A DNA stretch of 64,000 nt from Candidatus Micrarchaeia archaeon. GTDB taxonomy: Archaea > Micrarchaeota > Micrarchaeia > Burarchaeales > JACRGF01. The position numbers and the translations under genes are program-made. The stretch is from contig JAWAFC010000002.1 of NCBI GenBank assembly GCA_038890815.1, positions 41,067 to 105,066 of the forward strand, given 5' to 3'. Numbering within the stretch: position 1 is the first letter of the stretch; the number at the start of each line of letters is the position of its first letter. Of this stretch, positions 788 to 59,335 are shown piece by piece. The notes beneath the pieces are model-generated. The model was not told where the DNA came from and made no database searches. It saw only the letters and a program-made list of their open reading frames with translations.

Positions 788-811
788 GCCAATACAACGG
801 CTATAAGCCTA

Positions 812-1162: not shown

Positions 1163-2012
1163 AAGTTTTTTTCATGAGCAGCGCATCGCCCTCAATATTT
1201 GGAGACTCGCTGATGACGATGCCCGCGCACCGGAATTCCTTGAGCACGGCCAACAGCTCCTTATAGCGGAAGTCGCTCTGGGGCAAGTTCACATGCTTGA
1301 GCTCACCCTTGGCGCCGTAGGTGATTCCCTCAACGTGGCAGTGGAGGTCGCGCAAGATGGCTTTGCCGAGAGATCTCTCGAGCGTGTAGAGCACCTCCCT
1401 GAACTCCTCGCGTGTGTTGTGCCTGCCCGTGCGCGCATGGATGTGGGCCCAGTCAACGCACGGCAGCACGCCCTCAACTTGCTCGCACAGGCTGCATATT
1501 TCCTCGAGCGTGCCGAACTGGGAGGGCTTGCCCGTTGTCTCCAGGCGTAGCTGCACTGGTATGTCCCTGTGCCGCAGTTCGGCTACCATCGCCTCCACCT
1601 GCTTTTTCACATTCTTATAGGCCACCTCGGGGGCATCACCCATATAATAAGCTGGATGAAAGGTAATGCTCCGACCGCCACACTCCCACAGCCGCTCAGC
1701 GCCCTCGAGTATTTTGGCGATGCCTGCCCTCAGCTTGCCCTTTTCCTTTGCATTTAGATTTACGAAATAGCTTCCGTGCGCAGTGAGGAAGATGGAGTGT
1801 TGCTCGGCAGTCGCTTTCACCTGCGGAGCGATTTCCCTGCTCACATTAACACTTCTCACGAACTCGAGCTCCAGCGCTCCCAGCCCGAGCTTTGCAACCT
1901 GCGCGATGCCGTGTAGCGTGTCGTGCGGCTGGGTGGAGAGCGGAATGCCCGCAGTGCCGAACAGCAGCGCGCCCGGTGGCGGAGGCAGCCTTTGCATGAA
2001 AGCCTTTTGCAC
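1149..2012 (-). CDS. nfo: AP endonuclease family 2 (endonuclease IV-like TIM-barrel) protein
   Basis: 287 aa. Blocks HGSYFVNLNA, TFHPA, LETTGKPSQFGT, CVDWAHIHA and LHCHVEG parallel the conserved metal-binding blocks of Endo IV (HDSYLINL, NFHPGS, IENTAGQG, CIDTCHAFA, MHLNDAK). Confidence 0.6.
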   Translation of the reverse strand: MQKAFMQRLPPPPGALLFGTAGIPLSTQPHDTLHGIAQVAKLGLGALELEFVRSVNVSREIAPQVKATAEQHSIFLTAHGSYFVNLNAKEKGKLRAGIAKILEGAERLWECGGRSITFHPAYYMGDAPEVAYKNVKKQVEAMVAELRHRDIPVQLRLETTGKPSQFGTLEEICSLCEQVEGVLPCVDWAHIHARTGRHNTREEFREVLYTLERSLGKAILRDLHCHVEGITYGAKGELKHVNLPQSDFRYKELLAVLKEFRCAGIVISESPNIEGDALLMKKTFESL

Positions 2013-2080
2013 ATAGGCTATAAGAGCATTCTTCTTGCGCGAACAGCCGAGGTTTTATTTCCTTATTGTAAATACAATGC

Positions 2081-3229
2081 ATGAAAGGGGTACCGCCGAA
2101 CGTTTTTTTCCTCGGGCTGGTGAGCCTGCTCAACGACATCGCCAGCGAGGCGATTTTCTCAGTGCTGCCGGCCTTCATGTCGGCCGTGCTGCGCATCGAT
2201 TATGCTGCCATCGGGGTGATCGAGGGGGCTGCCGAGAGCGCGGCGAGCCTTCTCAAGCTGGCCGCGGGGTGGGCGAGCGATAGATGGAGAAGGAGAAAGC
2301 CAATTGTGCTGTTTGGGTATGCGCTGTCGGCTTTTGTAAAGCCCCTCTTCGCGCTGACAACGGGTGTGGCCGATGTCGCGGCCATTCGCGTGCTTGACAG
2401 GATTGGAAAAGGAGTGCGCACCTCGCCCCGCGATGCGCTGGTGGCCGACAGCACCCTTAAGAAGTTTAGGGGGAAGGCCTTCGGCTTTCACAGGGCCATG
2501 GATACGCTGGGCGCGGTTGCAGGCCCTCTGCTGGCCTTTGCCTTTCTCTCCTACTTCGGGACGAGCGAGGCGAGCTACCGAAGCATGTTTCTGCTCACAA
2601 TAATACCGGGCCTGGCCAGCCTGTTGTTGTTGTGGTTTTTTGTGAGCGAGAGAAAAGCGAGAGGGGGAAGGGCGGTGCGGCTGCTCGATTTCTCTTTCCT
2701 GAGCGCTGAGGCCAGGGCCTTCATGCTCGCAGTTTTCGTCTTCTCGCTTGCCAACTATTCGTATGCATTTCTGTTGCTGAGGGCTGGCGAGCTTGGAGCG
2801 GGCACTGCCTTCCTGCCGCTCCTCTACCTCCTTTACAACATCGCGTATGCCTCGCTGGCAGTCCCCGCAGGCACGCTGGCAGACAGGATCGGTGGAAAAA
2901 TTGTGCTGGCCACGGGCTGGTTGGCCTTCATCGCCGTTGGGGTCGGATTTGCGCTGGCGGGCGCTTGGTGGCAGGCCTTGCCGCTTTTTGTGCTTTATGG
3001 GTGTTTCAGCGCTGTGCATGAGACAGTTGTCAGGAGCCAACTCTCGCTGATGGTAGCGCCCGCACGGAGGGGTAGCGCGATGGGGGCGCTGAATCTCCTG
3101 CTGGGGATTGGGGCGCTGCCTGCCAGCGCTGTGATGGGCTGGGTGTGGAGCGCATGGGGTGCGAGCGCGGCCTTTGCCCTGAGCGCGGGCATTGCAGCCG
3201 CCGCACTGCTACTGCTTGCCAAGCGATAG
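2081..3229 (+). CDS. MFS-type transporter
   Basis: 382 aa, ~12 predicted hydrophobic helices, and a D-R-x-G-R-R-like loop (ASDRWRRRKP) typical of the MFS loop 2-3 motif. Confidence 0.7.
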   Translation: MKGVPPNVFFLGLVSLLNDIASEAIFSVLPAFMSAVLRIDYAAIGVIEGAAESAASLLKLAAGWASDRWRRRKPIVLFGYALSAFVKPLFALTTGVADVAAIRVLDRIGKGVRTSPRDALVADSTLKKFRGKAFGFHRAMDTLGAVAGPLLAFAFLSYFGTSEASYRSMFLLTIIPGLASLLLLWFFVSERKARGGRAVRLLDFSFLSAEARAFMLAVFVFSLANYSYAFLLLRAGELGAGTAFLPLLYLLYNIAYASLAVPAGTLADRIGGKIVLATGWLAFIAVGVGFALAGAWWQALPLFVLYGCFSAVHETVVRSQLSLMVAPARRGSAMGALNLLLGIGALPASAVMGWVWSAWGASAAFALSAGIAAAALLLLAKR

Positions 3230-5368: not shown

Positions 5369-6331
5369 ATGCGCGCGCTGCTGCTGCTGGCGATTGTGGG
5401 CATGGCCGCAGCGGCCTGCAGGCCAGGGGAGATTGTTGGCGTGAAGTGCGAGCTGAACGGCACGCTCCACTACAAGGAGTGTGCGGCCGGCGTGTTCGTG
5501 GCGCGTGAGCGCTCCTGCTTTGCTGAGGGGAAAGCGTGCGATGTTGAGACCGTCGGCTGCGTGCCGGCAGCCAACTGCTCTGCCGACATAATCGAAAAAT
5601 GCCCTGATGGGCGCGAGGTCGTGGTGGCTAAGTGCAATATGAGGATGCTGATCACCCACCAGAGGGTGGTGGTGGGCGTGGCACAGCCCACGGGCGAGAG
5701 CTGCGCAGGCTGCGCGCCTGGCTATGCCTGCGAGAGGGTGGAGAACTACACCGCGCTCGCTGAGAACTTCTCTGTCTCGGTATCGCTCAGGCAACTCGAC
5801 GCCAGCGGGAACCCCAGCAGGTACCACCTCTACACGCTGAGGTCCGGCGAGAATGCCAGCCTAAAAGATTTGAGCGTACGGCTGCTGGCGGCCAATGCGA
5901 GCGTGAGCTGCACTGGGGAAGGGGATGCTGTGATCGGAGGAGAAACGGCTTTGCTTGAGGTCAGCTGGGGACCGGTCAAGAGCAACTTGACGCTCGCCGA
6001 GGGGGAGAAGAGCGGCCGCTATTGCGCAAGCTATTACGCCGTGCCACCTTGTGCTGACATAGACCTCGACATCATGATTCCCCTCGGAGGGATTAGGGAG
6101 GATGCCGCATGTCTGCCGCGCGCGCCGCCCCAACAGCCTCCGGCGCCACAAAATGCCACTCAGCCTCTCAACCTCACCCAACCCCCTGCTCCGAACATAA
6201 CACAGCCAATGCTCCCGCCATCCAATGCCACACCGCAGGCCACGCCTGCGCCACAGCCCCCAAAGTGCCTTGGGATGCTGCTTGTGCTCTCGCTCGGAAT
6301 GATGGCGCTTCGGGCCGTAGGGGTGCGCTAG
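5369..6331 (+). CDS. Secreted Cys-rich putative surface glycoprotein with a Pro/Thr-rich stalk and C-terminal hydrophobic anchor
   Basis: From ATG 5369 the product begins MRALLLLAIVGMAAAAC (signal peptide). It has many Cys and more than 10 N-x-S/T sequons. The C-terminus is NATQPLNLTQPPAPNITQPMLPPSNATPQATPAPQPPKCLGMLLVLSLGMMALRAVGVR. The track ORF start at 5273 overlaps the divergent HDAC gene and is rejected. Confidence 0.55.
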   Translation: MRALLLLAIVGMAAAACRPGEIVGVKCELNGTLHYKECAAGVFVARERSCFAEGKACDVETVGCVPAANCSADIIEKCPDGREVVVAKCNMRMLITHQRVVVGVAQPTGESCAGCAPGYACERVENYTALAENFSVSVSLRQLDASGNPSRYHLYTLRSGENASLKDLSVRLLAANASVSCTGEGDAVIGGETALLEVSWGPVKSNLTLAEGEKSGRYCASYYAVPPCADIDLDIMIPLGGIREDAACLPRAPPQQPPAPQNATQPLNLTQPPAPNITQPMLPPSNATPQATPAPQPPKCLGMLLVLSLGMMALRAVGVR

Positions 6332-6435: not shown

Positions 6436-7071
6436 ATGTGGGGGGAGCTCGAGCTGCTCATCCTGCTCGCCACAGCGGGCGCTGCGGAGGGATGGGCGCG
6501 CACGACGACGAGGGAGATTGCCGGAAAGGCTGGGGCGAGCCAGCAGAGCGCCTCGCGGTGGCTCGCCAGGTTGGAGAGAGCCGGACTGATTGAGAGGCGC
6601 AGGGGGGCGGTGAGGCTCACAGAAAAGGGCAGGGAAAGGCTGCGGGTCGCGCTGGCAAGCCTCAGCACGATTTTTGCAGGAAAGCGCGTGGTGTTGAGGG
6701 GGGTGGTGTTCACGGGGCTGCGCGATGGCAGGTACTACATGTCGCTCGAAGGATACAGAAAGCAGTTCGCCGAGAAACTCGGGTTCGAGCCCTATCCCGG
6801 AACGCTGAATCTCAGAATAGATGAACCTGAGAAGAAAACCCTGCTCGCGCAGCGAAGGGGCATAGAGATCGGCGGTTTCGAGCACAATGGCAGGGTGTTC
6901 GGCGCGCTCAAGGCATTTCGCGCGAGCGTGAATGGCGTTAAGGGTGCGGTGATAATTCCGGAGCGCTCGCACTATGGAAACGATGTGGTGGAAGTGATTT
7001 CCGAGCACTACCTGAGGAAAAAGCTCGGGCTGAGAGATGGTGACAGGGCGGAAGTGGTCGTCAGGGACTAG
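6436..7071 (+). CDS. ribK: CTP-dependent riboflavin kinase with N-terminal winged-HTH domain
   Basis: 211 aa. The N-terminus carries an HTH (TTREIAGKAGASQQSASRWLARLERAGLIERRR). The C-terminal domain has the PYPGTLNLRI motif characteristic of archaeal MJ0056-type riboflavin kinases. Confidence 0.75.
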   Translation: MWGELELLILLATAGAAEGWARTTTREIAGKAGASQQSASRWLARLERAGLIERRRGAVRLTEKGRERLRVALASLSTIFAGKRVVLRGVVFTGLRDGRYYMSLEGYRKQFAEKLGFEPYPGTLNLRIDEPEKKTLLAQRRGIEIGGFEHNGRVFGALKAFRASVNGVKGAVIIPERSHYGNDVVEVISEHYLRKKLGLRDGDRAEVVVRD

Positions 7072-8288
7072 AGGAGGCTCTCGTAGAGCTCGATGGTCTC
7101 GTGAGCTATTTTTTCCCATGTGAATAGCTTTTCCACGCGCCGCCTGCCCGCCTCGCCCATGGCCTTGGCTGCTCCCTCATCTTCAAGCACACGCGTGAGG
7201 GCCGCGGCTATGCTCTCTGGCTTGTCAGGTTCGCACCAGAAGCCGTTCTTTCCATCCAGCACGCTCTCGCGCAGCCCGCCCAGCCCCACCACGACGGGCT
7301 TGCTCATCGCCATGCCCTCGAGCGACACAATGCCAAAAGGCTCATAGCGCGATGGCGCGCACACCACATCGCAGCAGGCATAGAGCAACAGACGCTCCCT
7401 CTCCTCCACCCATTTGTCTATCAGCACCACCTTATCCTTCAGCCCGTGGCGCACGATGAGCGAGCGTATCTCATCGGCCATCTCGCCACGCCCCAGGATG
7501 ACCAGCCTGGCCTTCGGCACTCTGGCGAGCACGAGCGGCATGGCGCGCACGAGGGAATCAACGCCCTTAACAAAGGTGAGCCTGCCAGTGAACAGGATGA
7601 CCTTGTCATCCTCGGCAAAGCCCAGCCGCTGTCTGCAGGCCGCCCTCTCCTCCGGCGGGAAGTTGGCGATGTTGTACTTCTTTTCATCAACGCCATTCCA
7701 CATCACACGGATGCGCGCGCCCGGGAAGTTCAGCACGTGTAGCTCCTCGCGCATGGCATAGCTGACAGTTATGATCATGTCAGCGTGCTGTGCGGTGGTG
7801 TACTCGAGATTGCGTATGGTGGAGGAGCCCCGCCCCCCGCTCCTGCCGTGCTCTGTGGAGTGCACATGGAAAACCATCGGCTTGCCCGTGTTCTTCTGTG
7901 CGATGACCCCGGCGATGGCCGACAGCCAGTCATGGCACACCACAAGGTCGTAGTTCTCTCTCTTCGCGATTTTGTTGACGAAGAGGTTGGCACTCAGGAA
8001 ATTGTAGGTCAGCACGTCACCAAAGAAGCGCAGGCCCTCGCCCCATCTGCGCAATTCCTCATCGACAAAAACGGGCAACACCGCGGTGGCGTCGGCGACG
8101 ATCGGGCGATGCACATCTATCCTCTCGCCGATTTCCTCGAAAGTCGGCAGATTGGCCCCCTCATTCATGGTGAATACCGTGACCTCATGGCCCATGGCTG
8201 CCAGCTGGGCTGTCATCTCCGCGGCATACGTGCCGAGGCCGCCGATGAAGCGCGGCGGATATTCCCACACGAAGTAGGCGAGCCGCAT
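7068..8288 (-). CDS. GT4/GT5-type glycosyltransferase (glycogen/starch-synthase-like)
   Basis: The start is chosen at MRLAYFVWEYPPRFIGGLGTYAAEMTAQLAAMGHEV (complement 8286-8288), which has a TTTAAA box ~25 nt upstream (8311-8320 region). The C-terminal GT-B motif is RYEPFGIVSLEGMAMSKPVV. The 98-codon upstream extension of the track ORF is Arg/Ala-rich with no homology and is rejected. Confidence 0.65.
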   Translation of the reverse strand: MRLAYFVWEYPPRFIGGLGTYAAEMTAQLAAMGHEVTVFTMNEGANLPTFEEIGERIDVHRPIVADATAVLPVFVDEELRRWGEGLRFFGDVLTYNFLSANLFVNKIAKRENYDLVVCHDWLSAIAGVIAQKNTGKPMVFHVHSTEHGRSGGRGSSTIRNLEYTTAQHADMIITVSYAMREELHVLNFPGARIRVMWNGVDEKKYNIANFPPEERAACRQRLGFAEDDKVILFTGRLTFVKGVDSLVRAMPLVLARVPKARLVILGRGEMADEIRSLIVRHGLKDKVVLIDKWVEERERLLLYACCDVVCAPSRYEPFGIVSLEGMAMSKPVVVGLGGLRESVLDGKNGFWCEPDKPESIAAALTRVLEDEGAAKAMGEAGRRRVEKLFTWEKIAHETIELYESLL

Positions 8289-8335
8289 GAGGCATTTTGG
8301 GGATGGGGATTTAAAAAGCACGCGCCAAAGTGCTG

Positions 8336-8501
8336 CATGCCAGAGCTCGTGGGCCTGTGCGCCATCTGCGGGCGGCCCGCCGTGCAGAGCTGCGGCCTGT
8401 GCGGCCGGCCGGCTTGCGAGCGCCACATCAGGGGAGGAGTATGCGATGCCTGCGCGGGTGGCAGGAGGATGCCCGAAAGAGGTCCGGGCCGTTTTCTCTA
8501 G
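8336..8501 (+). CDS. Small zinc-ribbon protein (54 aa), hypothetical
   Basis: MPELVGLCAICGRPAVQSCGLCGRPACERHIRGGVCDACAGG has a CxxC-x7-CxxC-x3-C-x2-H-x5-CxxC pattern. It lies divergent to the glycosyltransferase start. Weak support; it may be fortuitous in GC-rich DNA. Confidence 0.3.
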
Positions 8502-9031
8502 AGCCAAAGCTCGCTGCCGAGCCAGGCGAGCACGATCGAGCGGATCGTCTTGCCAAGCACGACGGCCACCAGGAACTTCCACCAGGGATAGCGCGTGGCG
8601 CCGGCAACGATGCCTGCCAGATCGAATGCTGGGTTTGGGATGAGCGCGAGGAGGAAGAGCGCGAGCGCGCCGTTGTTTTGCCTGAACATCCAGTCGCGCA
8701 ACGCGCGGTAGCGCACGCCCTCCTTTTTCCTAAAAATCCCCTCCGCGCCGTAGCCGGCGAGATAGCCGCTGAGCTCGCCGAGCCCGCTTCCGAGGCCAGC
8801 CGCAATCCCCAGCAGGAATGGATTGGTGTAGTGGCCGAGTATGACAACGACCGCGAGGCCCGGAACGGGCAGGATTACAGTGGCGCTCGTTACCAGCATC
8901 AACACAAAAACGCCGAAATATCCCCATGCCACAAGCTGTTGCTGGGAAAGCTGTGGGCCCAGCCACAGCGCGAGCGCGGTGATGGCCAACGAGATGGAGA
9001 GAGAAGCGATGGCTTTTCTGTCGATGCGCAT
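8498..9031 (-). CDS. DedA/VTT (SNARE-associated Golgi protein) family membrane protein
   Basis: Start at MRIDRKAIASL. Multi-pass hydrophobic profile. The PWWKFLVAVVLGKTIRSIVLAWLG region resembles the DedA C-terminal block. Confidence 0.5.
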   Translation of the reverse strand: MRIDRKAIASLSISLAITALALWLGPQLSQQQLVAWGYFGVFVLMLVTSATVILPVPGLAVVVILGHYTNPFLLGIAAGLGSGLGELSGYLAGYGAEGIFRKKEGVRYRALRDWMFRQNNGALALFLLALIPNPAFDLAGIVAGATRYPWWKFLVAVVLGKTIRSIVLAWLGSELWL

Positions 9032-9077
9032 ACACCTCTTTCGCAACCATAATAAATATTCGGCGCCTTAAAGGCGC

Positions 9078-9845
9078 GTGCGGCCTTTTGAAGTCGTGGC
9101 TGTGGCCTTTCTTGCAGCGCTCGCCGTGCTGCTGCAGCTTTACCGAGGTTTTTTCGGGGTACAGCTCACGAGCCTGATGTGGATTGATCTGGTCGGCGTG
9201 CCCGCGCTGCTGGCCTTTTTCCTTTTCGGGTTCGAGCACGCGCTGTACGTGAGCGTGCTGACCGCGCTGGCCGTGACCTTCGCCACGCCCGAATCCTGGC
9301 TCGGCGCGAGCGCGAAGTTTGCCGCCACAATGTGCATGCTCATTGTGCCAGCCACATACGCGCTGTATCGGAGGAATTTGGATGTGGGCATGATGGCGGC
9401 CATCCTCGTGGTCGGCACAGCCTACTCGCTGACCGCATTTGTGCTGTCGGGCGCGGTGAATCTGGCGAGCCAGGCATGGATAGAGATCACCGACCCACTT
9501 CTTCTCGGCGTGCTGCCCATACTCGCCATAGCGCTGTATGCCGTTGCGTTGCATGCCCTGTGGAGCAGGCAGAGAAGGATGTTGAGCGCGGATGAGTTCG
9601 CCGCCCCGAAAGTGCTTGCCCAGATGCTGGCCATCTCGCTCATCGTGCGAGGGCTGGTGATGATGGCTGTGTACTATTACTATGCCGGCCCACTGTTTCT
9701 CGGGCAGACAACCGAGGCGATAATGCGCGCGCTTCCCTGGGAGAGGATTTTCTTCTGGAGCGCTCTGCAGGGGAGCGTTGAGGCGCTGGTTGCCTGGGGC
9801 ATCGCCTTTCCGGCTGGTTTTCAGAAAAGATACGGAAGCTGGTGA
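9078..9845 (+). CDS. Integral membrane protein, unknown function (GTG start)
   Basis: 255 aa with 6-7 hydrophobic helices, coding-like composition, and no antisense competitor with homology. Confidence 0.45.
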   Translation: MRPFEVVAVAFLAALAVLLQLYRGFFGVQLTSLMWIDLVGVPALLAFFLFGFEHALYVSVLTALAVTFATPESWLGASAKFAATMCMLIVPATYALYRRNLDVGMMAAILVVGTAYSLTAFVLSGAVNLASQAWIEITDPLLLGVLPILAIALYAVALHALWSRQRRMLSADEFAAPKVLAQMLAISLIVRGLVMMAVYYYYAGPLFLGQTTEAIMRALPWERIFFWSALQGSVEALVAWGIAFPAGFQKRYGSW

Positions 9846-10520
9846 TCAGCGCCTGAGCACCCGCACGCCCCCTTCAGAGCCGATGATCGCCAGCGATGTC
9901 TTGCCCGCAAAAATTCCGTTCTCGAGCACGCCGGGAATGGCATTTATCTCTCTCTCAAGTTTGGCTGGATTGCGTATGATGCCAAAGCGCGCATCGAGCA
10001 GGAAATTGCCGTTGTCGGTGACAAAGCGCTCGCCTCGCTCGTTCAGCCTGTAATCCACCGATGCGCCCATGCGCCTGAGCGCGCGCGCGACCGCGCCGGC
10101 CGCAAAACGGATGACCTCCACGGCCACAACGCCATCCAGCCTTTTCACGAGCTTACGCTCATCGGCGATGACCACAAAACGCTTTGCCAGATAATCCACC
10201 ACCTTCTCCCTCGTCACGGCACCACCGCCAAGTCCCTTAAGCAGGTTGAGGTGTGGGTCAATCTGGTCGGCACCGTCCACGGCCAGATCTATCTGCTCGA
10301 CCTCCTCGAGCGTCACCACGCGTAGGCCGAGCCGGCGGGCGAGCTCCTCCGAGCGCAGCGAGGTCGCCACGCAACGCAGCCCCAGCTTCTCCTCCCTCTC
10401 CCTGGCGGCCACGGCCTCAATGAATCGCGCCGCTGTGCTTCCCGTGCCCAGGCCGAGCGCCATGCCTTCCCTGACCAGCTTGACGGCCTCGCGTGCCGCC
10501 ATCGCCTTTGCCTCCTCCAT
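9846..10520 (-). CDS. rpiA: Ribose-5-phosphate isomerase A
   Basis: 224 aa with GLGTGSTA and DGADQIDPHLNLLKGLGGGAVTREK, the canonical RpiA motifs. Confidence 0.85.
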   Translation of the reverse strand: MEEAKAMAAREAVKLVREGMALGLGTGSTAARFIEAVAAREREEKLGLRCVATSLRSEELARRLGLRVVTLEEVEQIDLAVDGADQIDPHLNLLKGLGGGAVTREKVVDYLAKRFVVIADERKLVKRLDGVVAVEVIRFAAGAVARALRRMGASVDYRLNERGERFVTDNGNFLLDARFGIIRNPAKLEREINAIPGVLENGIFAGKTSLAIIGSEGGVRVLRR

Positions 10521-11105
10521 CTATCCACCCCACAACCTGAAGAAAACCACGCAGGAGAGTGGCACGGTGATGTTGTCATCAAGATGCAAGTTAAAACTTT
10601 CCACGAGCGCGGCGAATGCTGCCAGCGCGAGCGGACCTTCCTCAGCGGGCAGGAAGAGCTGGATGAGCGAGGCCACGATGAAAAATGTCACCAGCCCCTC
10701 CCAGCTTTTGGTCGGGTTGTGCGGGAGAGGATGCCCTCCCTTGCCAAATATCGAGGCGAGGCCATCAGCAAAGGCGAGTATGAAAACGCCTGCGGCGATC
10801 TGCTGTGTGCTGTCCAGAAAAGAGAATAGTAGGAGGAGGCCCATGCCATACCAGAAGGCGCCATAGCCGGGTGGATGGCCCGGCCTCTCCACGAGGCGGA
10901 GGAGGGAGTCAAGCACCGGCGTGCGCTCTCCTTTCATGCTCCTATCCACAAGCCACACGCCGGCCATGAAGCCGAGCGACAGCAGCAGGAGGATGGGCGC
11001 CCTGCCCTCCTGGCCGCTGGCGGCAAGTAGCGCGAGCACGACCGCCCCCACGCCGATGTGCAGGAGCTTCCGCCTGAGCTCGAACGTTATCATCATCTCA
11101 CCCAT
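10521..11105 (-). CDS. CTP-dependent polyprenol/dolichol kinase-like membrane protein (SEC59/COG0170-like; CTP-transferase-1 superfamily)
   Basis: Start at MGEMMITFELRRKLLHIGVG (complement 11103-11105). It has the K-S/T-W-E-G motif (NPTKSWEG) of the CdsA/DolK family and a multi-pass TM profile. The long Arg/Cys-rich N-terminal extension in the track ORF is rejected. Confidence 0.5.
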   Translation of the reverse strand: MGEMMITFELRRKLLHIGVGAVVLALLAASGQEGRAPILLLLSLGFMAGVWLVDRSMKGERTPVLDSLLRLVERPGHPPGYGAFWYGMGLLLLFSFLDSTQQIAAGVFILAFADGLASIFGKGGHPLPHNPTKSWEGLVTFFIVASLIQLFLPAEEGPLALAAFAALVESFNLHLDDNITVPLSCVVFFRLWGG

Positions 11106-11593
11106 GCCTCGGTGATGCGCTCGGCAACCGCATAGCCAAGCACACCGACCACCATGCCGGCCACCACATCGCTGAGGAAATGCACGCCCAGATAGAGCCG
11201 CGAGAAAGCAGTGAAGAGCGCGAGCAGGTAGTAGGGCAGGAATGCGCCCGTGCCTATGGTGGCAGCAAGAAAGAAGAAAACGAGCACGGCATGGCCGCTC
11301 GGAAAGGAATAGTCTGGCGGGCGCGGACAGGAGACTTTCGGTACCACCGCATCGGGCAGGCTGGCATCGCACGGCCGCAGCTCGGCATAGGCGTTCTTCA
11401 GCGCGAGCGTGGCAAACAGCAACAACACAAGCCCAACGAAGATGGTGAGCAGGCGTCGCTTCTGAGAGAAAAATGGAATTGTGGCGATGAAAAGCAGCAG
11501 GGTGAGTGGATACACATGCTCGTGCACGAGGAGAGAAGGATAGGTGAGCAGCGGGTGATCGAGCGAGGCAAACCACGATGTCACTGCATCCAT
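11093..11593 (-). CDS. PAP2-family lipid phosphatase (polyprenyl-diphosphate / phosphatidate phosphatase-like)
   Basis: Start at MDAVTSWF. The PAP2 signature blocks KxxxxxxRP (KNAYAELRP), PSGH (FPSGHAV) and SRxxxxxHxxxD (SRLYLGVHFLSDV) are all present. Confidence 0.7.
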   Translation of the reverse strand: MDAVTSWFASLDHPLLTYPSLLVHEHVYPLTLLLFIATIPFFSQKRRLLTIFVGLVLLLFATLALKNAYAELRPCDASLPDAVVPKVSCPRPPDYSFPSGHAVLVFFFLAATIGTGAFLPYYLLALFTAFSRLYLGVHFLSDVVAGMVVGVLGYAVAERITEAWVR

Positions 11594-11654
11594 GCACAGG
11601 CTTTCCTGCCGAACGCATAAAAACATATTTTAAGGAGAATGGGGAGAGAAGCGC

Positions 11655-12605
11655 ATGCGATTGTTGGCGCTTTTTGTGCTGGCGTTGTCAGCGCTGTCCG
11701 TGCTCGCGGCCCAAGAGTTTGACGCTGTCGTTGTGGGCGTGAGCGGGGCGGCCACGCTCAGGGGCAGCGACGAGCTCAGCGTATACAATTGCAAGCTGCC
11801 CACGCAGGCGCCCCCCAGGATAGAGTTCGACATAGCCAGGCCTGCTCAGTGCGGCGAGGCATTTGTGGTGAATTATGAGAGGTATGACTTTGACCGCAGG
11901 CAGTTCGTGCCGGGAGGACAGCTGTGTATAGTGCCGCCCGCCGCCAACTGTAAGGCAACGGTGCCGATAAAGCTTGGCGGAAGCGGGCGGGGCGAGATTG
12001 AGCTCAAACTCCTCCGCCTCACCGCAACGTGCCAGGGCATCGAATATGCGAGGGAATTCACATTCAGAATAATCCACCAGCCCGATCCGGTCGAGCAGGG
12101 CGTGATGGCGAGCATGGCAGAGGCCAACGCCACAGCGGAGCGGGCGAGGGCTGTGCTGGCTGAGTGTGGCCAGTGCTGCGCCGGAGCTGGCGAGGGCGAG
12201 CTGGCAGCCGTGAGTTCCGCCCTCGCAAGGGCCGCGACCGCGCTCACGGCATGCGATATGGCGGATGCCACGAGCCAGGCGGGGTTGGCAGCACAGAGCG
12301 CGCAGGCCGCGCTGGCGCTCGCCGAAGCCAGGCTGGCCGATTGCCGTGCGAGTGGCGGCATCACCATCACGACACCGAACGTGACTGAGAATGTGACTGA
12401 GAATGTGAGCTGCGCCAACACCTGCCTTCCTGATGAGGAGCAGCTCCCTGACTGCTCATGCATCAAGAAGCCAATCAGCATCGTAGCCGGGAACATCACG
12501 GGGAATGCCACAGTCGCAAATGCCACCACGCCCCCAGCTCGGCCGAGGCCCTGCGGGCTGTTCGCCCTCCTCCTGCTGGCTTGCTTGGCAGTGCTGAGAG
12601 GATAG
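11655..12605 (+). CDS. Secreted Cys-rich putative glycoprotein with C-terminal hydrophobic anchor
   Basis: Signal peptide MRLLALFVLALSALSVLAAQEF, many Cys, tandem NVTENVTENVS sequons, and the C-terminus NITGNATVANATTPPARPRPCGLFALLLLACLAVLRG. Confidence 0.55.
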   Translation: MRLLALFVLALSALSVLAAQEFDAVVVGVSGAATLRGSDELSVYNCKLPTQAPPRIEFDIARPAQCGEAFVVNYERYDFDRRQFVPGGQLCIVPPAANCKATVPIKLGGSGRGEIELKLLRLTATCQGIEYAREFTFRIIHQPDPVEQGVMASMAEANATAERARAVLAECGQCCAGAGEGELAAVSSALARAATALTACDMADATSQAGLAAQSAQAALALAEARLADCRASGGITITTPNVTENVTENVSCANTCLPDEEQLPDCSCIKKPISIVAGNITGNATVANATTPPARPRPCGLFALLLLACLAVLRG

Positions 12606-12606
12606 C

Positions 12607-12909
12607 ATGGGCATACTCGATCTGTTGCTGGGCAAAAAGGAAACTACGAGAGGGCTGTGGTGTCTGCGCTGCAAGTCCTACATCCCTGAGGGAAGCGAGG
12701 AGTGCCCGCGCTGTCATGCCAAAGTCAGCGAGATGTTCAAAATAACCTGCCCGAACTGCAAGAAGGAGATCGCTTGGAATGCAAAGCTCTGTCCGCACTG
12801 TGGAAAGAGTTTCATCGAAACAGAGCAGACCTTCAGGTGCCCGGTATGCGGCTATGAGGCTGGATATAGGATGAACCAATGTCCTGTGTGCAACACGCCG
12901 TTAGTTTAG
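12607..12909 (+). CDS. Multi-zinc-ribbon (double zinc ribbon-like) protein
   Basis: 100 aa with four CxxC pairs (CLRC..CPRC, CPNC..CPHC, CPVC..CPVC). It starts 1 nt after the stop of the upstream secreted-protein gene. Confidence 0.55.
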   Translation: MGILDLLLGKKETTRGLWCLRCKSYIPEGSEECPRCHAKVSEMFKITCPNCKKEIAWNAKLCPHCGKSFIETEQTFRCPVCGYEAGYRMNQCPVCNTPLV

Positions 12910-13583
12910 CTCCCTTTCCTCAGATAAGTTCTGAAGAAATACAGCGAGGCGATGACTGTCGCCACGGCTGCGATGGTTATGGCGGGCGCTGCCATCTGGC
13001 TGAAGGACTCAAGCGCGAAGGCCACGGATTTTGGGGGCGCGCCGGCCACGGCCGTCTTGGCGCTCACCGCAAACGCGCTCGCCCTCTCCGAATCATTCTG
13101 TGCAAGCGCCAGCACAGCAAGCCTTACATAGCCCTCTGCTTCCTCCGTGTCGAGCCCCTGCCTGCTCGCTCTCACTATGCTGTCATTGGCCTCAGCGATG
13201 AGCCGGAGCGCCAGCGCGTGCTGTGAGGGTGAGGGAAGAGGCTTGGCATTGCCCACCTCAATCCTCTGGGGCTGGCCCGACTGCCGAGCGAAGCCATCGG
13301 CGCTGCAATCGCACTTCCATGTGTGATTGCCAGCGGACAGAAACACCGAGCGTGTGAAGGAGGGTGAGCGCACGTCGTAGGAAGAGGAGTCCACAACGAT
13401 GTCGCACTTCCCGCCCGGCACCGCCCCACCCGCATAGCGGTAGCTGCATGTGAGCGAAACCCAGCCCGGCGAAGGCAACGAGGATGGCACGGCCTGCTGG
13501 AACAGCGTCGTGGGCACGTCAACCGGGGCATGCTCTGCGAAGGACAGCGCGATGCACGCCAGCGCGAGCAGAATTTTCAGCAC
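12906..13583 (-). CDS. Secreted/membrane-anchored protein, unknown function
   Basis: Sec-type signal peptide MLKILLALACIALSFA, N-x-S/T sequons, and a single C-terminal TM helix followed by RKGS. Confidence 0.45.
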   Translation of the reverse strand: MLKILLALACIALSFAEHAPVDVPTTLFQQAVPSSLPSPGWVSLTCSYRYAGGAVPGGKCDIVVDSSSYDVRSPSFTRSVFLSAGNHTWKCDCSADGFARQSGQPQRIEVGNAKPLPSPSQHALALRLIAEANDSIVRASRQGLDTEEAEGYVRLAVLALAQNDSERASAFAVSAKTAVAGAPPKSVAFALESFSQMAAPAITIAAVATVIASLYFFRTYLRKGS

Positions 13584-31716: not shown

Positions 31717-33486
31717 CTAAGCCAGCAGGTGCAGGCCGAGCGATAGTTTGAACACGCCGAGCGAGAGGGGAGCGAGGATGAGGAAATACACGAGCGCCTT
31801 GCGTGGGGAGCCCTCCTGAAAAGCCACAAGCAAGCCGGACAGGAAAGCATAGATAATGAGGTAGGCCTGCACGGCATCGAGCGTGGCCGAGAAGAGCGTG
31901 AGGCGCTCAGTAGCCGGCAGCGCGGAGAAGAGCGCGCCTGCTGACAGATTGAGCTCTGCCACCATGTTGGCAACGAGCGCGAGTATGAAGGGAACGAGCA
32001 CACTGCCTCCTATCAGCATCGTGTACTTCTGCATGGCCAGCAGCGCCGCGCGCTCCCTCACGAGCGCGGCAAAGCCCATGATGTCTTCGGCCGTCTCGCG
32101 CACGGCATGTTCGAAAGCCGCACCGGCCGACCAGCCAGCCGCGAGAAGGTGTGTTGCACGTGAGAGCAACAGCGAGTCATTGCGTTCGCCTATCTCAAGC
32201 ACAGCCCGCTCAAGCGGCATGCCCGACCTGACCTGGTTGAGGGCCATGCGGAACTCCTCGCTGAGGGGCCCGAAGCCAGAGCCGGCAATGCTCTCGAGAA
32301 TTCTCTCTACCGAAACACCCCTGGGAAACGAGGAGGCCTGAAACAGCGCATCGGGCAGAAACCTCTCAAGCTCTTTTGTGCGCTGCTCGAGCCTGTAGGA
32401 AAGAGAGAGATAGGTGAGGGCTGGCAGTGCCAGGGGAATTGGGGAGTAGGCCCGCATCGCTGGAGCAGACAGCGAAAGCGCAAGCAGAAGGAGAAAGCAC
32501 AGTATGCCTACGGCGAGGGAGAGGAGGATGAGGCGCTTAGCTCCAAAATGGGCGAAAGGGGCAGGGACCACGGCATCGAGGCGAGCCATTTCCTCCTCGG
32601 AAAGGGGGGATGAAAGGGAGCTGTGCAGAAAGGGTGGGGCTTTCATGCGTATCGCCATGATGACAAGCAGGCCGAGCAAGGGAAAGACCACGAGATAGGC
32701 GAGCCAGATATCGCTCGCGGTGAAAATGGGCGAAAAAATCGCCGAACCCACCACAACGTATGCCTGAAAGAGTGCGGGAATGACGCACGCCACGGCGAGA
32801 AAAAGCAGGCCGAGAAATGACAGCGCAGCCGCATACTCACGCGCGCCAGCTTTCTGAACATCGATGAGCTCATCGGCCAGCCGCTTGAGGGCCTCACCCT
32901 GCCCGCCATGCTGATAGGCTGCCACGAGGTGGGCGACAGCGCGCCTAAATGCCAGCGAGCCCACGCGGCCGGCCAGCCTGCGCAGGGCATCGGGAAAGGT
33001 GGCCCCACCTTTCTTTACCTCATTGAGCACGAGCGCGAGCTCGGCCGAGGTCTGGTAGCGCATGCGCGCCGCGCGCTCGATGGCCTTCTCGAAAGGCGTA
33101 TTGAGCGAAAGCTCGGCGGCCAGAAAACGAAGGAGGAAAGGAAGCTCTGCCTCCAGCTGCGCAGCCCGCCTTTTCGCCTGAAATGCTGGCAAGGATTTGA
33201 GCACGAGGAAGATGAGGGAGAAGGATAGCAGGGAGAGCGACAGGGATGTCGGCGCATCGCGCAAGAGGAAGTAAAACGCGCCGAAGAGAACAGAGGCAAG
33301 GAAAAGCGAGAGTAGGAGGGAACGGAAGAGATAAGAGCGCGCGGGGATGCCCATGCCTGCCTGCTCAAGCTGCGACTGTAGGCACGCGGTTTCCTGCCTA
33401 GTGAAAAGCCAGCTCACGCGAGGTTTTAAATTGGCGGTAAATTTATGCTTGACTGCGATTATCGAAAAACGAGCTCTTCCCTGCAT
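31717..33486 (-). CDS. Type II secretion system F-domain membrane protein (FlaJ/TadC-like platform protein); start uncertain (33486 or ~33354)
   Basis: Two T2SS-F-like repeats (e.g. ...ALRRLAGRVGSLAFRRAVAHLVAAYQHGG...), ~9 TM helices, and a length typical of archaeal FlaJ/TadC homologues. No adjacent secretion ATPase is in the window. Confidence 0.55.
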   Translation of the reverse strand: MQGRARFSIIAVKHKFTANLKPRVSWLFTRQETACLQSQLEQAGMGIPARSYLFRSLLLSLFLASVLFGAFYFLLRDAPTSLSLSLLSFSLIFLVLKSLPAFQAKRRAAQLEAELPFLLRFLAAELSLNTPFEKAIERAARMRYQTSAELALVLNEVKKGGATFPDALRRLAGRVGSLAFRRAVAHLVAAYQHGGQGEALKRLADELIDVQKAGAREYAAALSFLGLLFLAVACVIPALFQAYVVVGSAIFSPIFTASDIWLAYLVVFPLLGLLVIMAIRMKAPPFLHSSLSSPLSEEEMARLDAVVPAPFAHFGAKRLILLSLAVGILCFLLLLALSLSAPAMRAYSPIPLALPALTYLSLSYRLEQRTKELERFLPDALFQASSFPRGVSVERILESIAGSGFGPLSEEFRMALNQVRSGMPLERAVLEIGERNDSLLLSRATHLLAAGWSAGAAFEHAVRETAEDIMGFAALVRERAALLAMQKYTMLIGGSVLVPFILALVANMVAELNLSAGALFSALPATERLTLFSATLDAVQAYLIIYAFLSGLLVAFQEGSPRKALVYFLILAPLSLGVFKLSLGLHLLA

Positions 33487-36088: not shown

Positions 36089-37759
36089 GTGCTGACAAAA
36101 CGAGATGTCGTATTGCTGGCTGTAGTGGTTTTCTTCGCCCTTGCCATGGCCTCAATCGATTTTGGGGAGATTGATGCGCGCACCTATCCCCATCTCCTCC
36201 GCATTGAGAAGGGGGAGGGCGCAAATGGTTTTCATGCAGCGCTCGCGGCACTCAAAGGAAGCGGGAGGACTTTACTCAAGAATGTCGCACTGATTCTGCC
36301 TGCCGTGCTGACAGCCATGTCGACGGCATTCGTTTTTCTCACGCTGCTGCCCATCGGCAGATTTCATGCCTTTTTTGCAGCCGTGCTGTATGCATCCTCC
36401 CCACTTGTGCTCGCGAGCTCCACCTCGGGCGTGTTGCTCCCAGAGACATTTGCCCTATTTTTTTACACGCTTTCGGCCCTCCTCTTTCTCTCCTCGCTGA
36501 GGGTGCCCGCGCTCGCGCTCTCCGCCGGCCTGGCATCGCTGGCCGCCGCAATCCTCTCTCCCGATTTCATCTATGCTGCCCTGGCGCTGTTCGTTGCCGG
36601 CCTCCTCCACTCCGCCCTCCACAAGCACTTCCCCCTGCAGCCAGCACTGCTCGCTCTGCCATTCCTCGCTTTTCCGGCCCTTGCCACTCTCCCACAGCTA
36701 TCATTTTCGTCCACGCTCGATCCCTGGAGTTTGCTCACATTCGGCATTGCAGTGTTTCCCCTCGTGCGGTCCGGGCGCATTGAGAGAGAGGAGGTATTCT
36801 TTGGCGTGCTCGCCCTTCTCTCTCTCATACTGGCATGGCATGCCCGTGCGCTCGCACCGACGGGCCTTGCGCTCGCGGCGGGATTTGCGGCAGGCTCGGC
36901 TTTCACATCACAGCGTCATCCGCTCACGGGGCTGGCGGTGCTCGCCTTTTTTGTCTTTCTGTCAATCACCACCGCCTTTGTTGAGCCAGCGCGCGCGCTC
37001 GCTCTCGCCACTGTTCTCACTGTGCTGATCGCTCTCGGCGCATGGATGTACAGGGAGAAAGTGCCCCCCTTCTACGCCATCTCGCTGGCCATGCTGCTCG
37101 CGCTTTTCCACGGCCTGCTTGCTGCACAATTCTCGAAGCAGGCTATCGGGCCCGAGACAAAAGCAGCCATTGCCTGGAGCGCCAACCTGCCCTCCGGTGC
37201 GCGCGTCGCGCTGTGGGGCGACGAAACCGCTTTCGAGTTCGAAAGTGGCCTGCGCGCGCTCGGGGACAGGAATGCGCTGGCGCGCTATCTGCTGTCAAAC
37301 GCTACCACGACCGAACTTGCGCGCGCCGGAGTCACCCATCTCATCATCCCCTTCAGCGTGTTCGATGATTTCGGCGCGTTGCGCGAGGCTGCGCGCTCCA
37401 CGGCACGCCTTGATGCCTTTGCCCCCACAGGCCAATACGTTGTGTTGGGCAACCGCCTTTATGCTGTATTCTCCTCCAAAACGGGCTGGATGTTCTATCC
37501 TGCCGATCCAGACACGGGCAATCTCATAGAGGGCGAGATCCTGCTCGAGAGTGGCGGTAGCCTGCCGACAGGGCGGCTCCTCCTGCTCAAGGCCTCCAAC
37601 ACCAGCGGGCTGGCTCCCGCTGACAGGTTCATCTATCCACGCGCGGGCCTTGAGATCAATCTGCTCAAGCTCTTCTTTCCCGATAGTTTCGGTAAGGCTG
37701 CTGGCGTGAGAGAGCTCAGCCGGGAACAAGGATTGCTCATACTGGAGGTGAGTGAATGA
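36089..37759 (+). CDS. Polytopic membrane protein (556 aa), possibly a GT-C-fold glycosyltransferase; function unassigned
   Basis: About 13 TM helices in the N-terminal 370 aa, followed by a soluble C-terminal domain. It sits between hmgA and the AglH-like gene with 1-4 nt spacing. Confidence 0.45.
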   Translation: MLTKRDVVLLAVVVFFALAMASIDFGEIDARTYPHLLRIEKGEGANGFHAALAALKGSGRTLLKNVALILPAVLTAMSTAFVFLTLLPIGRFHAFFAAVLYASSPLVLASSTSGVLLPETFALFFYTLSALLFLSSLRVPALALSAGLASLAAAILSPDFIYAALALFVAGLLHSALHKHFPLQPALLALPFLAFPALATLPQLSFSSTLDPWSLLTFGIAVFPLVRSGRIEREEVFFGVLALLSLILAWHARALAPTGLALAAGFAAGSAFTSQRHPLTGLAVLAFFVFLSITTAFVEPARALALATVLTVLIALGAWMYREKVPPFYAISLAMLLALFHGLLAAQFSKQAIGPETKAAIAWSANLPSGARVALWGDETAFEFESGLRALGDRNALARYLLSNATTTELARAGVTHLIIPFSVFDDFGALREAARSTARLDAFAPTGQYVVLGNRLYAVFSSKTGWMFYPADPDTGNLIEGEILLESGGSLPTGRLLLLKASNTSGLAPADRFIYPRAGLEINLLKLFFPDSFGKAAGVRELSREQGLLILEVSE

Positions 37760-38772
37760 ACCTCGATTTTGGCATTTCGCTGACAGTTGTGTTCGCGCTG
37801 TCCTTTTTCACCGTCCTTCTCACCACACCGCTGCTGGCGCGCAAAATAGCCGCGGCCGGACTGCTCGCGCCAGATCTCAACAAGCGCGGCAGGCCCGCCG
37901 TTCCGAGAATAGGCGGCGTGGCGGTGATCTTCGGCTTCGCTCTCGCCACACTGCTCTCGCTGCAGCTCTCTACCCACCTCCTCAACGTCCCCCTCATGCT
38001 GGCGAGCATCGCAACCGTGCTTCTCATTGCGTTGCTCGGTCTTCTCGACGATATCTTGCGCATTCGCGATGTCTGGCGTGTGGTGCTGCCTGCATTCGCC
38101 GCACTCCCCCTCATGGCCGTGAAGGCCGGCACGAGCGTACTCACCATTCCTCTCATCGGTCCGGTGGAGACCGATCTTGGCGTTTTTGTGCTGCCCTTTC
38201 TGGGACCTGTTGATGTCAACCTATATGTTCTCCTTCTCATCCCGATCGGCGTGGTGGCCTCAAGCAATCTCATCAATCTCCTAGCCGGTTTCAACGGCCT
38301 TGAGGCCGGAAGCGGCGCGATCGTCAGCGCCTCGCTCCTGGCCACCCTTCTGCTCCTACCACCAAACCCGGGCACTGCCGTGGCCGGTTTCTTGCTCGCG
38401 GCCATGCTCGGTGCTTGCCTCGCTTTCCTGCCGTTCAACTGGTTTCCGGCGCGCGTTTTTCCCGGCAATGTGCTCACCTATGCCATAGGCGCGCTCATCG
38501 TGGCCGCCGTGGTTTCCGCTAACTTCGAGCGTGCGGGCGTCATCGCGCTCACCCCGCAGATTGTAGAATTCTTTCTCAAGGCGCGCTCACGCTTTCAGGC
38601 CGAGAACTTTGGCAGGCCCGACAAGCAGGGGAGGCTGCACTACAGCGGCAAGATATGTTCGCTCACACATCTCATCATGCGGCTCTTCAAGCCAACCGAG
38701 CCGCAGCTCGTGGTCGTGCTCCTGCTGCTACAAGCGCTTTTCGGCCTGCTGGCCATGGCCAGCGTGCTCTAG
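37756..38772 (+). CDS. UDP-HexNAc:polyprenyl-phosphate HexNAc-1-phosphate transferase (MraY/WecA/AglH family)
   Basis: 338 aa, ~10 TM helices, a DDxxD-like GLLDDILRIRD motif and an NLINLLAGFNGLEAG block conserved in the PNPT family. Confidence 0.7.
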   Translation: MNLDFGISLTVVFALSFFTVLLTTPLLARKIAAAGLLAPDLNKRGRPAVPRIGGVAVIFGFALATLLSLQLSTHLLNVPLMLASIATVLLIALLGLLDDILRIRDVWRVVLPAFAALPLMAVKAGTSVLTIPLIGPVETDLGVFVLPFLGPVDVNLYVLLLIPIGVVASSNLINLLAGFNGLEAGSGAIVSASLLATLLLLPPNPGTAVAGFLLAAMLGACLAFLPFNWFPARVFPGNVLTYAIGALIVAAVVSANFERAGVIALTPQIVEFFLKARSRFQAENFGRPDKQGRLHYSGKICSLTHLIMRLFKPTEPQLVVVLLLLQALFGLLAMASVL

Positions 38773-45184: not shown

Positions 45185-45203
45185 GTCAAGCGCAATCCAT
45201 TGA

Positions 45204-47072: not shown

Positions 47073-47081
47073 ACAAAACCC

Positions 47082-48032: not shown

Positions 48033-48060
48033 GAGAAAATTTTGGCGATGAAATTAAAAA

Positions 48061-49014
48061 CTATCCTCTTCCGATGTCAGACCGTCTTCCAAAAACGAAC
48101 ATAAGTATCCCAATGCAGAAAAAGACCCCCTGCAGGAGTTTGAGCGCCAGCGCCGGAATATACTCCCAGTCTCTTCTTTTTAATGCCAGCAGGGCAAACC
48201 AAAGCGCGATGATGTCGAATGGAAGCGAGAGCAGCGCGAGCAATGGATGCGAAAATACTGTGAAAGCTACCAATGCGGCGAACGATACTAACAAGCCAGG
48301 CAGTCGGACGAACTCCAGCCTTCTTGTCTTTATCATGTAAATCGGTGCAGTCCTGCCATACCACAGCGCGCTCTTGACGAATTCACTAAATGATTCTGGC
48401 ACATTAGAGTACTGAATTGCCCTGCGCTCCAAGACCTCAATTAAACCCTTTTTCTTACAATATGCTTTCAGCCTTTCTCTGAGCTCCATGTCTTCGCCCA
48501 CCCCCAATTTTGCAAACCCACCGACATCGAAAAACACCGTTCGGCGTATCGCGCCGGCTGCAGACATCGTCCCATCAAAAGGTCCTGCAAACGATGGGTA
48601 ATGAAAATATTGCTGCTTAAGGTAAAGCCTCTCAAACCAAGTATGCACGACAAACTGGTAACGCGTCATGACACCAGCTACACGTGGATCTTTGAAATGT
48701 CTCAATACACGAAAGAAGTAAGCTCTGTTGTATCCATCAAAGTCGGCGTCACAAAAAGTAAGAAAAGGGGCATTTGTGGCCCTCGCACCCTGATTTCGTG
48801 CGCCCGCTGGGCCGGTCTTTTCTTTTTGGTGCAGTACTTTACAGCCAAACTTTCTTGCAACTGTAACTGTACCATCGGTGCTTCCACCATCAACTACGAT
48901 GATCTCCTTGTCCGGATACGGATTTTTTGTCAGATTGTACAATAGCTTCTCGAGTTTCTTTTCCTCATTAAGTGCTGGGATGATTATTGCAACTTTCCCA
49001 AAACTCTTTTTCAC
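48061..49014 (-). CDS. Family-2 glycosyltransferase with C-terminal TM helices (Dpm1/AglJ-like)
   Basis: The N-terminus VAIIIPALNEEKKLEKLL...IIVVDGGSTDGT...DADF has the GT2 DxD context. Two or three C-terminal hydrophobic helices follow. Confidence 0.65.
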   Translation of the reverse strand: MKKSFGKVAIIIPALNEEKKLEKLLYNLTKNPYPDKEIIVVDGGSTDGTVTVARKFGCKVLHQKEKTGPAGARNQGARATNAPFLTFCDADFDGYNRAYFFRVLRHFKDPRVAGVMTRYQFVVHTWFERLYLKQQYFHYPSFAGPFDGTMSAAGAIRRTVFFDVGGFAKLGVGEDMELRERLKAYCKKKGLIEVLERRAIQYSNVPESFSEFVKSALWYGRTAPIYMIKTRRLEFVRLPGLLVSFAALVAFTVFSHPLLALLSLPFDIIALWFALLALKRRDWEYIPALALKLLQGVFFCIGILMFVFGRRSDIGRG

Positions 49015-51856: not shown

Positions 51857-51921
51857 AGCTACTGTGCTGTTGTGGCCGAAGACTATCCCTAAAATATAAA
51901 TAGTTCCACCCGGTACTTATT

Positions 51922-53097: not shown

Positions 53098-53098
53098 A

Positions 53099-56528: not shown

Positions 56529-56530
56529 CA

Positions 56531-57959: not shown

Positions 57960-57963
57960 CTTT

Positions 57964-59280: not shown

Positions 59281-59335
59281 ATAATGTCTTTGGCATGTAA
59301 TTATTAATGTACATTTCTACTAAGCTAAGAAAAGC

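Follow-up and report, generated by a model that had tools for sequence, protein, structure and literature searches.

How are surface glycoproteins attached to the membrane in Micrarchaeota and other DPANN archaea? The question is open, and a study of the surface layer (S-layer) of Ca. Micrarchaeum harzensis identified no anchoring motif and left the mechanism open (bioRxiv 10.1101/2021.04.28.441871). It is raised here by a 64-kb stretch of DNA (the whole stretch analysed, referred to below as the window) from a Candidatus Micrarchaeia archaeon (Micrarchaeia, DPANN), a metagenome-assembled genome (MAG) from a hot spring. Two genes of the window, the founding members of family 1 and family 2, encode mutually unrelated, putatively secreted proteins that end in the same kind of tail, in which a Cys stands at the boundary between a glycosylatable linker and a hydrophobic segment. 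Together with 10 kb on each side of the window, the readable DNA amounted to 84 kb. We argue that this tail is a lineage-specific, Cys-type tripartite C-terminal sorting signal of Micrarchaeia surface glycoproteins, an explanation to which we give an even chance of being correct.

The family-1 open reading frame (ORF) ends in ...TPAPQPPKCLGMLLVLSLGMMALRAVGVR, with the stop codon at 6329-6331, and the family-2 ORF ends in ...TTPPARPRPCGLFALLLLACLAVLRG, likewise followed by the stop codon. Both tails are composed of a Pro/Thr/Asn-rich, sequon-bearing linker, a [KR]-x(0,1)-Cys signature, 14 uncharged residues and a short basic end (coordinates in Table 1). In family 1, Pro, Thr, Ser, Asn and Gln make up 73% of the last 30 residues of the stalk, which also hold two sequons. 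A strict tail pattern was defined as [KR]-x(0,3)-C, 12-17 uncharged residues with a mean hydropathy above 1.8, and [KR]-x(0,6)-end. The result showed that only 2 of the 529 stop-to-stop ORFs of the window (at least 60 codons) match this pattern, namely the two tail proteins, and that each of 50 codon-shuffled windows gave 0 matches. With these counts, and with its conservation in all orthologues described below, the tripartite tail with a boundary Cys that had been picked out in a sequence-only reading of the window is real. Its recurrence in a second secreted protein at 12520-12605 was also borne out, the Cys codon lying at 12552-12554; the hydrophobic helix, which that reading had put at about 17 residues, was found to be an uncharged run of 14. 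A run of 13-16 residues, the range found among all tails collected here, is short for a permanent membrane span. For comparison, a secreted 225-amino-acid (aa) protein encoded nearby, which has an ordinary C-terminal anchor without Cys, shows an uncharged run of 21 residues followed by the 8-residue tail RTYLRKGS.

The two window proteins, whose NCBI entries belong to a contig of 151,933 bp, each begin with a signal-like hydrophobic segment. A longer ORF frame for the family-1 gene opens at 5273; the NCBI start is at 5369. Pfam and NCBIfam scans of both full-length proteins returned no family reaching its cutoff. AlphaFold2 (AF2) models, built on shallow alignments, had a mean predicted local distance difference test score (pLDDT) of 67-70. 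The family-1 model consists of two all-beta domains, a disordered region at 253-300 and a helix at 303-315, and the family-2 model shows strands at 24-142, helices at 145-232, pLDDT below 50 at 237-301 and a helix at 301-315. In both models, then, a stretch of 50-65 residues with pLDDT below 50 is followed by a terminal helix. Foldseek comparison of the ectodomains with the PDB gave no match at E < 0.1 for family 1 and only a generic beta-sandwich/helix resemblance (template modelling score 0.15-0.25) for family 2. By sequence and model, the family-1 product is predicted to be a secreted, Cys-rich, all-beta orphan glycoprotein, and the family-2 product a secreted orphan glycoprotein with a beta-sandwich, a three-helix bundle and a disordered stalk, each ending in the Cys tail. 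Both families would thus be stalked, orphan surface proteins.

A search of 5.8 billion proteins found only two close relatives for each window protein. In these orthologues, at 61-79% identity, the motifs [KR]-C-L-G of family 1 and [KR]-P-C-G-L-F-A-L-L of family 2 are both invariant, the linker ahead of the Cys varies by indels and substitutions, and the helix beyond the Cys varies by hydrophobic replacement. When the family-1 profile was run exhaustively with HMMER against 1.84 billion representatives, three further, distant members were detected, all of which carry the tail: P0007 (ending in ...LEEPKCLPFFICLSALLLAFSWRE), P0008 (...GIPFKCLGIFFAAGVLVAVFCGKRWV) and P0009 (...TQPPKTCPIAFALATLTIAAFASKQK). 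P0009 shares only 27% identity with the window protein, and its middle region is a different one, showing that the family-1 tail persists at this level of identity and despite a swapped middle domain. The approximately 50 residues ahead of the tail Cys hold no other conserved column in the family-1 alignment. Metagenome scans and viral scans with both families gave no matches, and a genome-collection scan returned only the already known JAWCPB01 MAG.

The gene for P0009 sits on a 4.3-kb contig, L007 (Logan SRR22387921), where the adjoining gene encodes a 413-aa protein that is unrelated to it, has a signal peptide and contains 12 sequons. The C-terminus of this protein, which is referred to as family 3, is ...EQPKKQSTCLLGAMLFSIPIVLIVSRWWK; a homologue search with it found none. 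Both secreted proteins of the contig, mutually unrelated, therefore end in a Cys tail, and the tail is not confined to the two proteins in which the sequence-only reading had seen it. The same contig also encodes a 527-aa TPR and AAA ATPase protein (533-2116, minus strand). Two unrelated tail-bearing families were seen in the window genome (84 kb read) and two on L007.

Across the three unrelated families, all ten tails have [KR]-x(0,3)-C, a Gly or Pro no more than three residues further on, 13-16 uncharged residues, and an end of 2-6 residues that opens with Lys or Arg, so that the Cys lies 16-22 residues from the C-terminus. The residues that follow the Cys give C-L-G in four tails, C-G-L in three, and C-L-P, C-P-I and C-L-L-G in one each. 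The 30 residues ahead of the Cys consist of Pro, Thr, Ser, Asn and Gln to 43-73% in all ten and contain one to three N-x-S/T sequons. Taken together, these comparisons indicate that the tail is conserved far beyond the surrounding linker, and its anatomy supports a putative cleavable C-terminal sorting signal.

How such a signal would work can be outlined by analogy with known Cys-type signals, from which the proposed lipidation, cleavage and type of enzyme are taken. The protein would be exported via Sec through its N-terminal signal peptide, and its sequon-rich stalk would be N-glycosylated (AglB/STT3 and lipid-carrier genes are found in the vicinity). The protein would be held transiently in the membrane by the short hydrophobic segment at its C-terminus, with the basic end staying on the cytoplasmic side, and the Cys, placed at the outer membrane boundary, would receive a lipid via its thiol. 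In DPANN archaea, lipoproteins with a lipobox and AliA, a candidate enzyme for Cys lipidation, are reported to be common, and Cys-lipidating chemistry is therefore plausible in them (PMC12462473). An intramembrane protease would then cut just after the Cys, near the Gly or Pro within three residues of it, and the helix would be removed, leaving as the product a glycoprotein lipid-anchored by its C-terminus. On the model of MYXO-CTERM/myxosortase and CGP-CTERM/MrtA, the protease would be CPBP/Rce1-like. Because Cys-type signals are processed by CPBP/Rce1-like proteases, the enzyme to look for is a CPBP-family protease and not, as the sequence-only reading had proposed, an archaeosortase.

Several results weigh against a sorting signal. 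No CPBP protease, archaeosortase or rhomboid was found in the 84 kb, as judged by family models and CPBP motifs in the window and by annotation in the flanks. Only two tail proteins were seen within the same 84 kb, and tail sequences in searchable databases number ten in total. NCBIfam was scanned against the full proteins and 14 distinct isolated tails (16 sequences, two tails being rescanned in a shorter form), and none of the curated CTERM models reached its cutoff on any tail. The tail profiles of family 1 and family 2 gave cross-scores of only 1-12 bits, and what the tails share is for this reason regarded as a common design and not as strong conservation of sequence. The basic end is weak: it carries only one or two Lys or Arg residues and no Arg cluster. 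Every Cys of these Cys-rich proteins is conserved, so that the tail Cys does not stand out by its conservation. When Cys parity was used as a test for a free thiol, the results were mixed: in family 2, the tail Cys comes on top of 14 Cys in the ectodomain, which makes it the odd one out; family 1 has the N-terminal Cys, 15 or 21 further Cys and the tail Cys; and family 3 has five Cys and the tail Cys. Family 2 agrees with the test, family 1 gives an ambiguous answer and family 3 disagrees with it, and because the three differ, parity was not counted as strong evidence.

Some of these results would be expected if the tail were a plain C-terminal transmembrane (TM) anchor that is retained, with its juxtamembrane Cys forming an intermolecular disulfide (in covalent dimers or in links to another envelope protein), forming a disulfide back to the ectodomain, or being lipidated without cleavage. 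We regard this leading alternative as possible and lean against it. The lack of a processing enzyme in the 84 kb speaks for it, as do the short basic end, which is not Arg-rich, and the Cys-rich nature of the proteins, which are presumably disulfide-bonded and in which every Cys is conserved. If the N-terminal Cys of family 1 is a lipobox Cys, the odd ectodomain count (15 or 21) could pair with the tail Cys, and the family-3 count of 5 + 1 points the same way. A retained anchor accounts less well for the length of the hydrophobic run (13-16 residues, compared with 21 in the neighbouring anchored protein that lacks the Cys), for the Gly or Pro found after the Cys in 10/10 tails, where the helix starts, and for the same boundary design across three unrelated families; in family 2, moreover, the tail Cys is left over beside an even number, 14, of ectodomain Cys. 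The N-terminal Cys of family 1 occurs in the contexts AAAC, FSAC, YGAC and FAQC, position -3 of which is atypical compared with the lipobox [LVI]-[ASTVI]-[GAS]-C. Lipobox-like N-termini were also observed in a 1255-aa protein ending in a Roadblock/LC7 domain (LAGC; 16363-20130, minus strand) and in a 168-aa protein (LLGC; 33983-34489, minus strand). Judged from its predicted proteins, the organism probably makes N-terminal lipoproteins.

A more far-reaching idea, which we consider unlikely, is that sorting by C-terminal Cys lipidation follows a separate pathway in Micrarchaeia, and perhaps in other DPANN archaea, one that uses neither a CPBP protease nor an archaeosortase. One possibility would be an AliA-type lipoprotein machinery acting on an inverted, C-terminal lipobox. 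If such a pathway exists, proteins like those of family 1, with a lipobox-like Cys at the N-terminus and a Cys tail at the C-terminus, would be lipid-tethered at both ends, and the surface with which these ectosymbionts contact their hosts would be built in a new way.

We also consider it improbable that the tail has no shared function and is a by-product of Cys-rich, C-terminally anchored proteins, kept by shared ancestry within each family. Cys accounts for 5-7% of the residues in these proteins, so a Cys near an anchor is not very improbable in any one of them, and the low cross-family scores of the tail profiles and the small number of sequences are compatible with this explanation. It does not readily explain why three unrelated families agree in the position of the boundary, the Gly or Pro, the short segment and the preceding basic residue, why there were 0 matches in the shuffled windows and none in the other 527 ORFs, or why the tail persists down to 27% identity although the linker can no longer be aligned.

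That the tail is instead a substrate of an archaeosortase (ArtA-E-like) with a non-canonical signature, the parallel drawn in the sequence-only reading, stands as far as the tripartite layout and the glycosylatable stalk go, both of which resemble PGF-CTERM substrates (PMC6098224), but is very improbable, since the PGF, PEF and VPXXXP signatures occur in none of the ten tails, no PGF-CTERM-type model matched, no archaeosortase/exosortase model matched any scanned membrane protein of the window, archaeosortases have been described from a subset of Euryarchaeota (PMC6098224), and all described Cys-type signals are assigned to CPBP proteases (bioRxiv 10.1101/2023.06.07.544157).

Table 1. Positions in the window of the two tail genes, the parts of their tails and neighbouring features
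Feature	Position	Strand	Remarks
Family-1 gene, 320 aa from the NCBI start	5369..6331	+	Identical to NCBI QXG98_01145
Family-1 signal peptide ending in lipobox-like Cys (MRALLLLAIVGMAAAAC)	5369..5419	+	N-terminal Cys invariant in 6/6 members
Family-1 stalk, Pro/Thr/Gln/Asn-rich with N-x-T sequons, residues 253-299	6125..6265	+	pLDDT < 50; indels and low identity in alignment
Family-1 signature Cys, residue 300, preceded by Lys	6266..6268	+	[KR]-C or K-T-C in 6/6 family-1 members
Family-1 hydrophobic segment LGMLLVLSLGMMAL, 14 residues, Gly at +2 from Cys	6269..6310	+	Mean Kyte-Doolittle hydropathy 2.35; AF2 helix 303-315
Family-1 basic end RAVGVR and stop codon	6311..6331	+	
CTP-dependent riboflavin kinase gene (RibK)	6436-7071	+	2 kb from the 7-TM gene
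Stretch between the tail genes	7068..11626	mainly -	GT4 glycosyltransferase, DedA/VTT, PAP2, 191-aa membrane protein, RpiA; RibU-like 7-TM protein on +
DedA/VTT protein	8498..9046	-	Weak match to undecaprenyl-phosphate transporter model
255-aa 7-TM protein	9078..9845	+	Sole PDB sequence match RibU (3p5n), E 0.45; no family match
191-aa membrane protein	10521..11096	-	Conserved in three genomes, next to family 2, between RpiA and PAP2 genes
PAP2 polyprenyl-diphosphate phosphatase-like protein	11093..11626	-	Best model undecaprenyl-diphosphatase, 53.7 bits against a 250-bit cutoff
Family-2 gene, 316 aa	11655..12605	+	Identical to NCBI QXG98_01190
Family-2 sequon-rich stalk, residues 237-299	12363..12551	+	3 sequons in last 30 residues
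Family-2 signature Cys, residue 300, within R-P-C-G	12552..12554	+	[KR]-P-C-G-L-F-A-L-L invariant in three orthologues
Family-2 hydrophobic segment GLFALLLLACLAVL, 14 residues, then R-G and stop codon	12555..12605	+	
Contrast protein, secreted, 225 aa, ordinary C-terminal anchor without Cys	12906..13583	-	Kept in three related genomes

The block that holds both tail genes is syntenic in three related genomes. Judging by the predicted products, the theme of the stretch between them is glycan lipid-carrier genes, without a protease. The 191-aa membrane protein gave no family or PDB match; it contains a stretch, ...DGLASIFGKGG...PTKSWEG, which we take to be reminiscent of polyprenol or dolichol kinases. 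The 7-TM protein is probably a riboflavin transporter and not a sorting enzyme. An 892-aa STT3/AglB gene lies directly beyond the window end, and the predicted gene context fits N-glycosylated envelope proteins. Two nucleotides past the family-2 stop, a gene for a 100-aa double zinc-ribbon protein starts (12607-12909, plus strand), likewise in three related genomes; from this arrangement, it may be co-transcribed with the family-2 gene.

The window holds 14 multi-TM stop-to-stop ORFs, which were all listed; one is a spurious antisense frame over the family-2 gene. Family assignments were obtained for MFS, DedA, PAP2, ArsP permease, T2SSF-like, glycosyltransferase-4 family and flippase proteins. 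The 101-aa, 191-aa and 556-aa membrane proteins gave no family match, the 255-aa protein is weakly RibU-like, and in the 1255-aa protein only the Roadblock/LC7 domain was matched, its membrane part being without a family match. The CPBP motif triad was present in none of the window multi-TM ORFs, and a 317-aa ORF with about three TM segments (48061..49014) contained none of the three CPBP motifs (motif check only, no family-library scan). The 556-aa protein (36089-37759, plus strand), which has about ten TM segments and overlaps the start of a PF00953 glycosyltransferase-4 family gene (37756..38772), gave no Pfam, NCBIfam or meaningful PDB sequence match and may be an unrecognised membrane enzyme of a glycosylation pathway.

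Further features of the window were also recorded. The G+C content drops from approximately 0.54-0.63 at 1-44000 to approximately 0.48-0.51 at 44000-64000. The low-GC part forms a glycan-biosynthesis block, with GT4 transferases, three asparagine-synthase-like genes, a UDP-glucose dehydrogenase, a flippase and methyltransferases, and may be a variable or acquired glycosylation island. Four tandem small genes at 14252-15782 on the minus strand encode products of 107-153 aa, the N-termini of which show a basic residue, Gly/Ser and a hydrophobic stretch; on these features, the products resemble archaeal type IV pilin-like proteins. The window also encodes a T2SSF-like membrane protein (31717..33486), and a T2SSE ATPase gene lies downstream of the window.

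The sequence-only reading had called the signal undescribed, which overstates its novelty, because Haft has described tripartite C-terminal sorting signals that form a class marked by an invariant Cys (bioRxiv 10.1101/2023.06.07.544157). For these signals, lipidation of the Cys and subsequent cleavage by a dedicated CPBP/Rce1-like intramembrane protease are both predicted (bioRxiv 10.1101/2023.06.07.544157). The Micrarchaeia tail is probably a new lineage-specific member of this known class and does not represent a new category of mechanism. For DPANN archaea, it would be the first candidate of this type that we found; in the literature, no paper was found that links Micrarchaeota or DPANN to such a signal. 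If it is a sorting signal, the class of Cys signals and CPBP proteases would extend to a second archaeal lineage and to DPANN, a simple sequence rule would be at hand for listing the lipid-anchored surface proteome of host-dependent cells, and the protease and the lipid transferase would become genes to seek in very small genomes. Should the tail be a plain anchor instead, the finding would matter only locally.

Comparison with known systems places the tail more closely. Two candidates were rejected: a glycosylphosphatidylinositol-like signal, because a hydrophilic spacer is missing and the end is basic, and a class III (prepilin) cleavage site, because the topology does not fit. The PGF-CTERM signal of the S-layer glycoprotein of Haloferax volcanii, recognised by archaeosortase A, is likewise an archaeal tripartite C-terminal signal with an upstream glycosylatable stalk; the helix is removed, a prenyl-derived lipid is attached and the stalk is glycosylated (PMC6098224). 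However, its signature is Pro-Gly-Phe and not Cys, and the enzyme that recognises it is homologous to exosortases and has an active site of Cys, Arg and His. Archaeal N-terminal lipobox lipoproteins (AliA/AliB) share with the tails a Cys that stands on the outer side of a hydrophobic export segment, at its boundary, with small residues flanking it; in these lipoproteins, which are prevalent in DPANN, that Cys is the site of lipidation. The orientation is reversed, since the Cys of the Micrarchaeia tails precedes the helix and stands at the C-terminus.

MYXO-CTERM, the signal of myxosortase MrtX in Myxococcota, resembles the tails in its invariant signature Cys, its tripartite layout and, sometimes, a second Cys nearby. 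Cleavage of MYXO-CTERM by myxosortase, a CPBP/Rce1-like enzyme, has been shown experimentally and depends on the Cys (PMC11980579). The corresponding model (TIGR03901) was the closest among the curated sorting-signal models, matching one orthologue tail with 15.4 bits (E 0.019; cutoff 20); a shorter version of that tail scored 11.2 bits, and 13 of the 14 distinct tails gave no match at all. Unlike the Micrarchaeia tails, MYXO-CTERM is bacterial, involves outer-membrane and type II secretion steps, and is longer (34 positions).

CGP-CTERM is an archaeal signal of approximately 20 aa, restricted to Thermococcales, with an invariant Cys-Gly-Pro, and a stretch rich in glycosylatable residues has been described upstream of it, as for archaeosortase substrates (bioRxiv 10.1101/2023.06.07.544157). 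The Micrarchaeia tails are similar to CGP-CTERM, the signal of the archaeomyxosortase MrtA (NF040590), in being archaeal, in having a Cys that opens the signature and directly abuts a short hydrophobic segment, and in their basic end; they also share the length of approximately 20 residues at the extreme C-terminus, the abundance of glycosylatable residues among the 30 residues upstream and the occurrence on unrelated surface proteins. They differ from it in that they lack an invariant Gly-Pro after the Cys, that a basic residue precedes the Cys, that the end has one or two Lys or Arg residues rather than an Arg cluster, and that the host belongs to Micrarchaeia (DPANN) and not to Thermococcales; MrtA was not seen in the 84 kb, and the CGP-CTERM model (TIGR04288) gave no match at E up to 10 against the full proteins and the 14 distinct tails. 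Taken together, these comparisons indicate that the tails have the anatomy of the Cys class but fall outside each of its named families, and that, in size and host domain, they are closest to CGP-CTERM.

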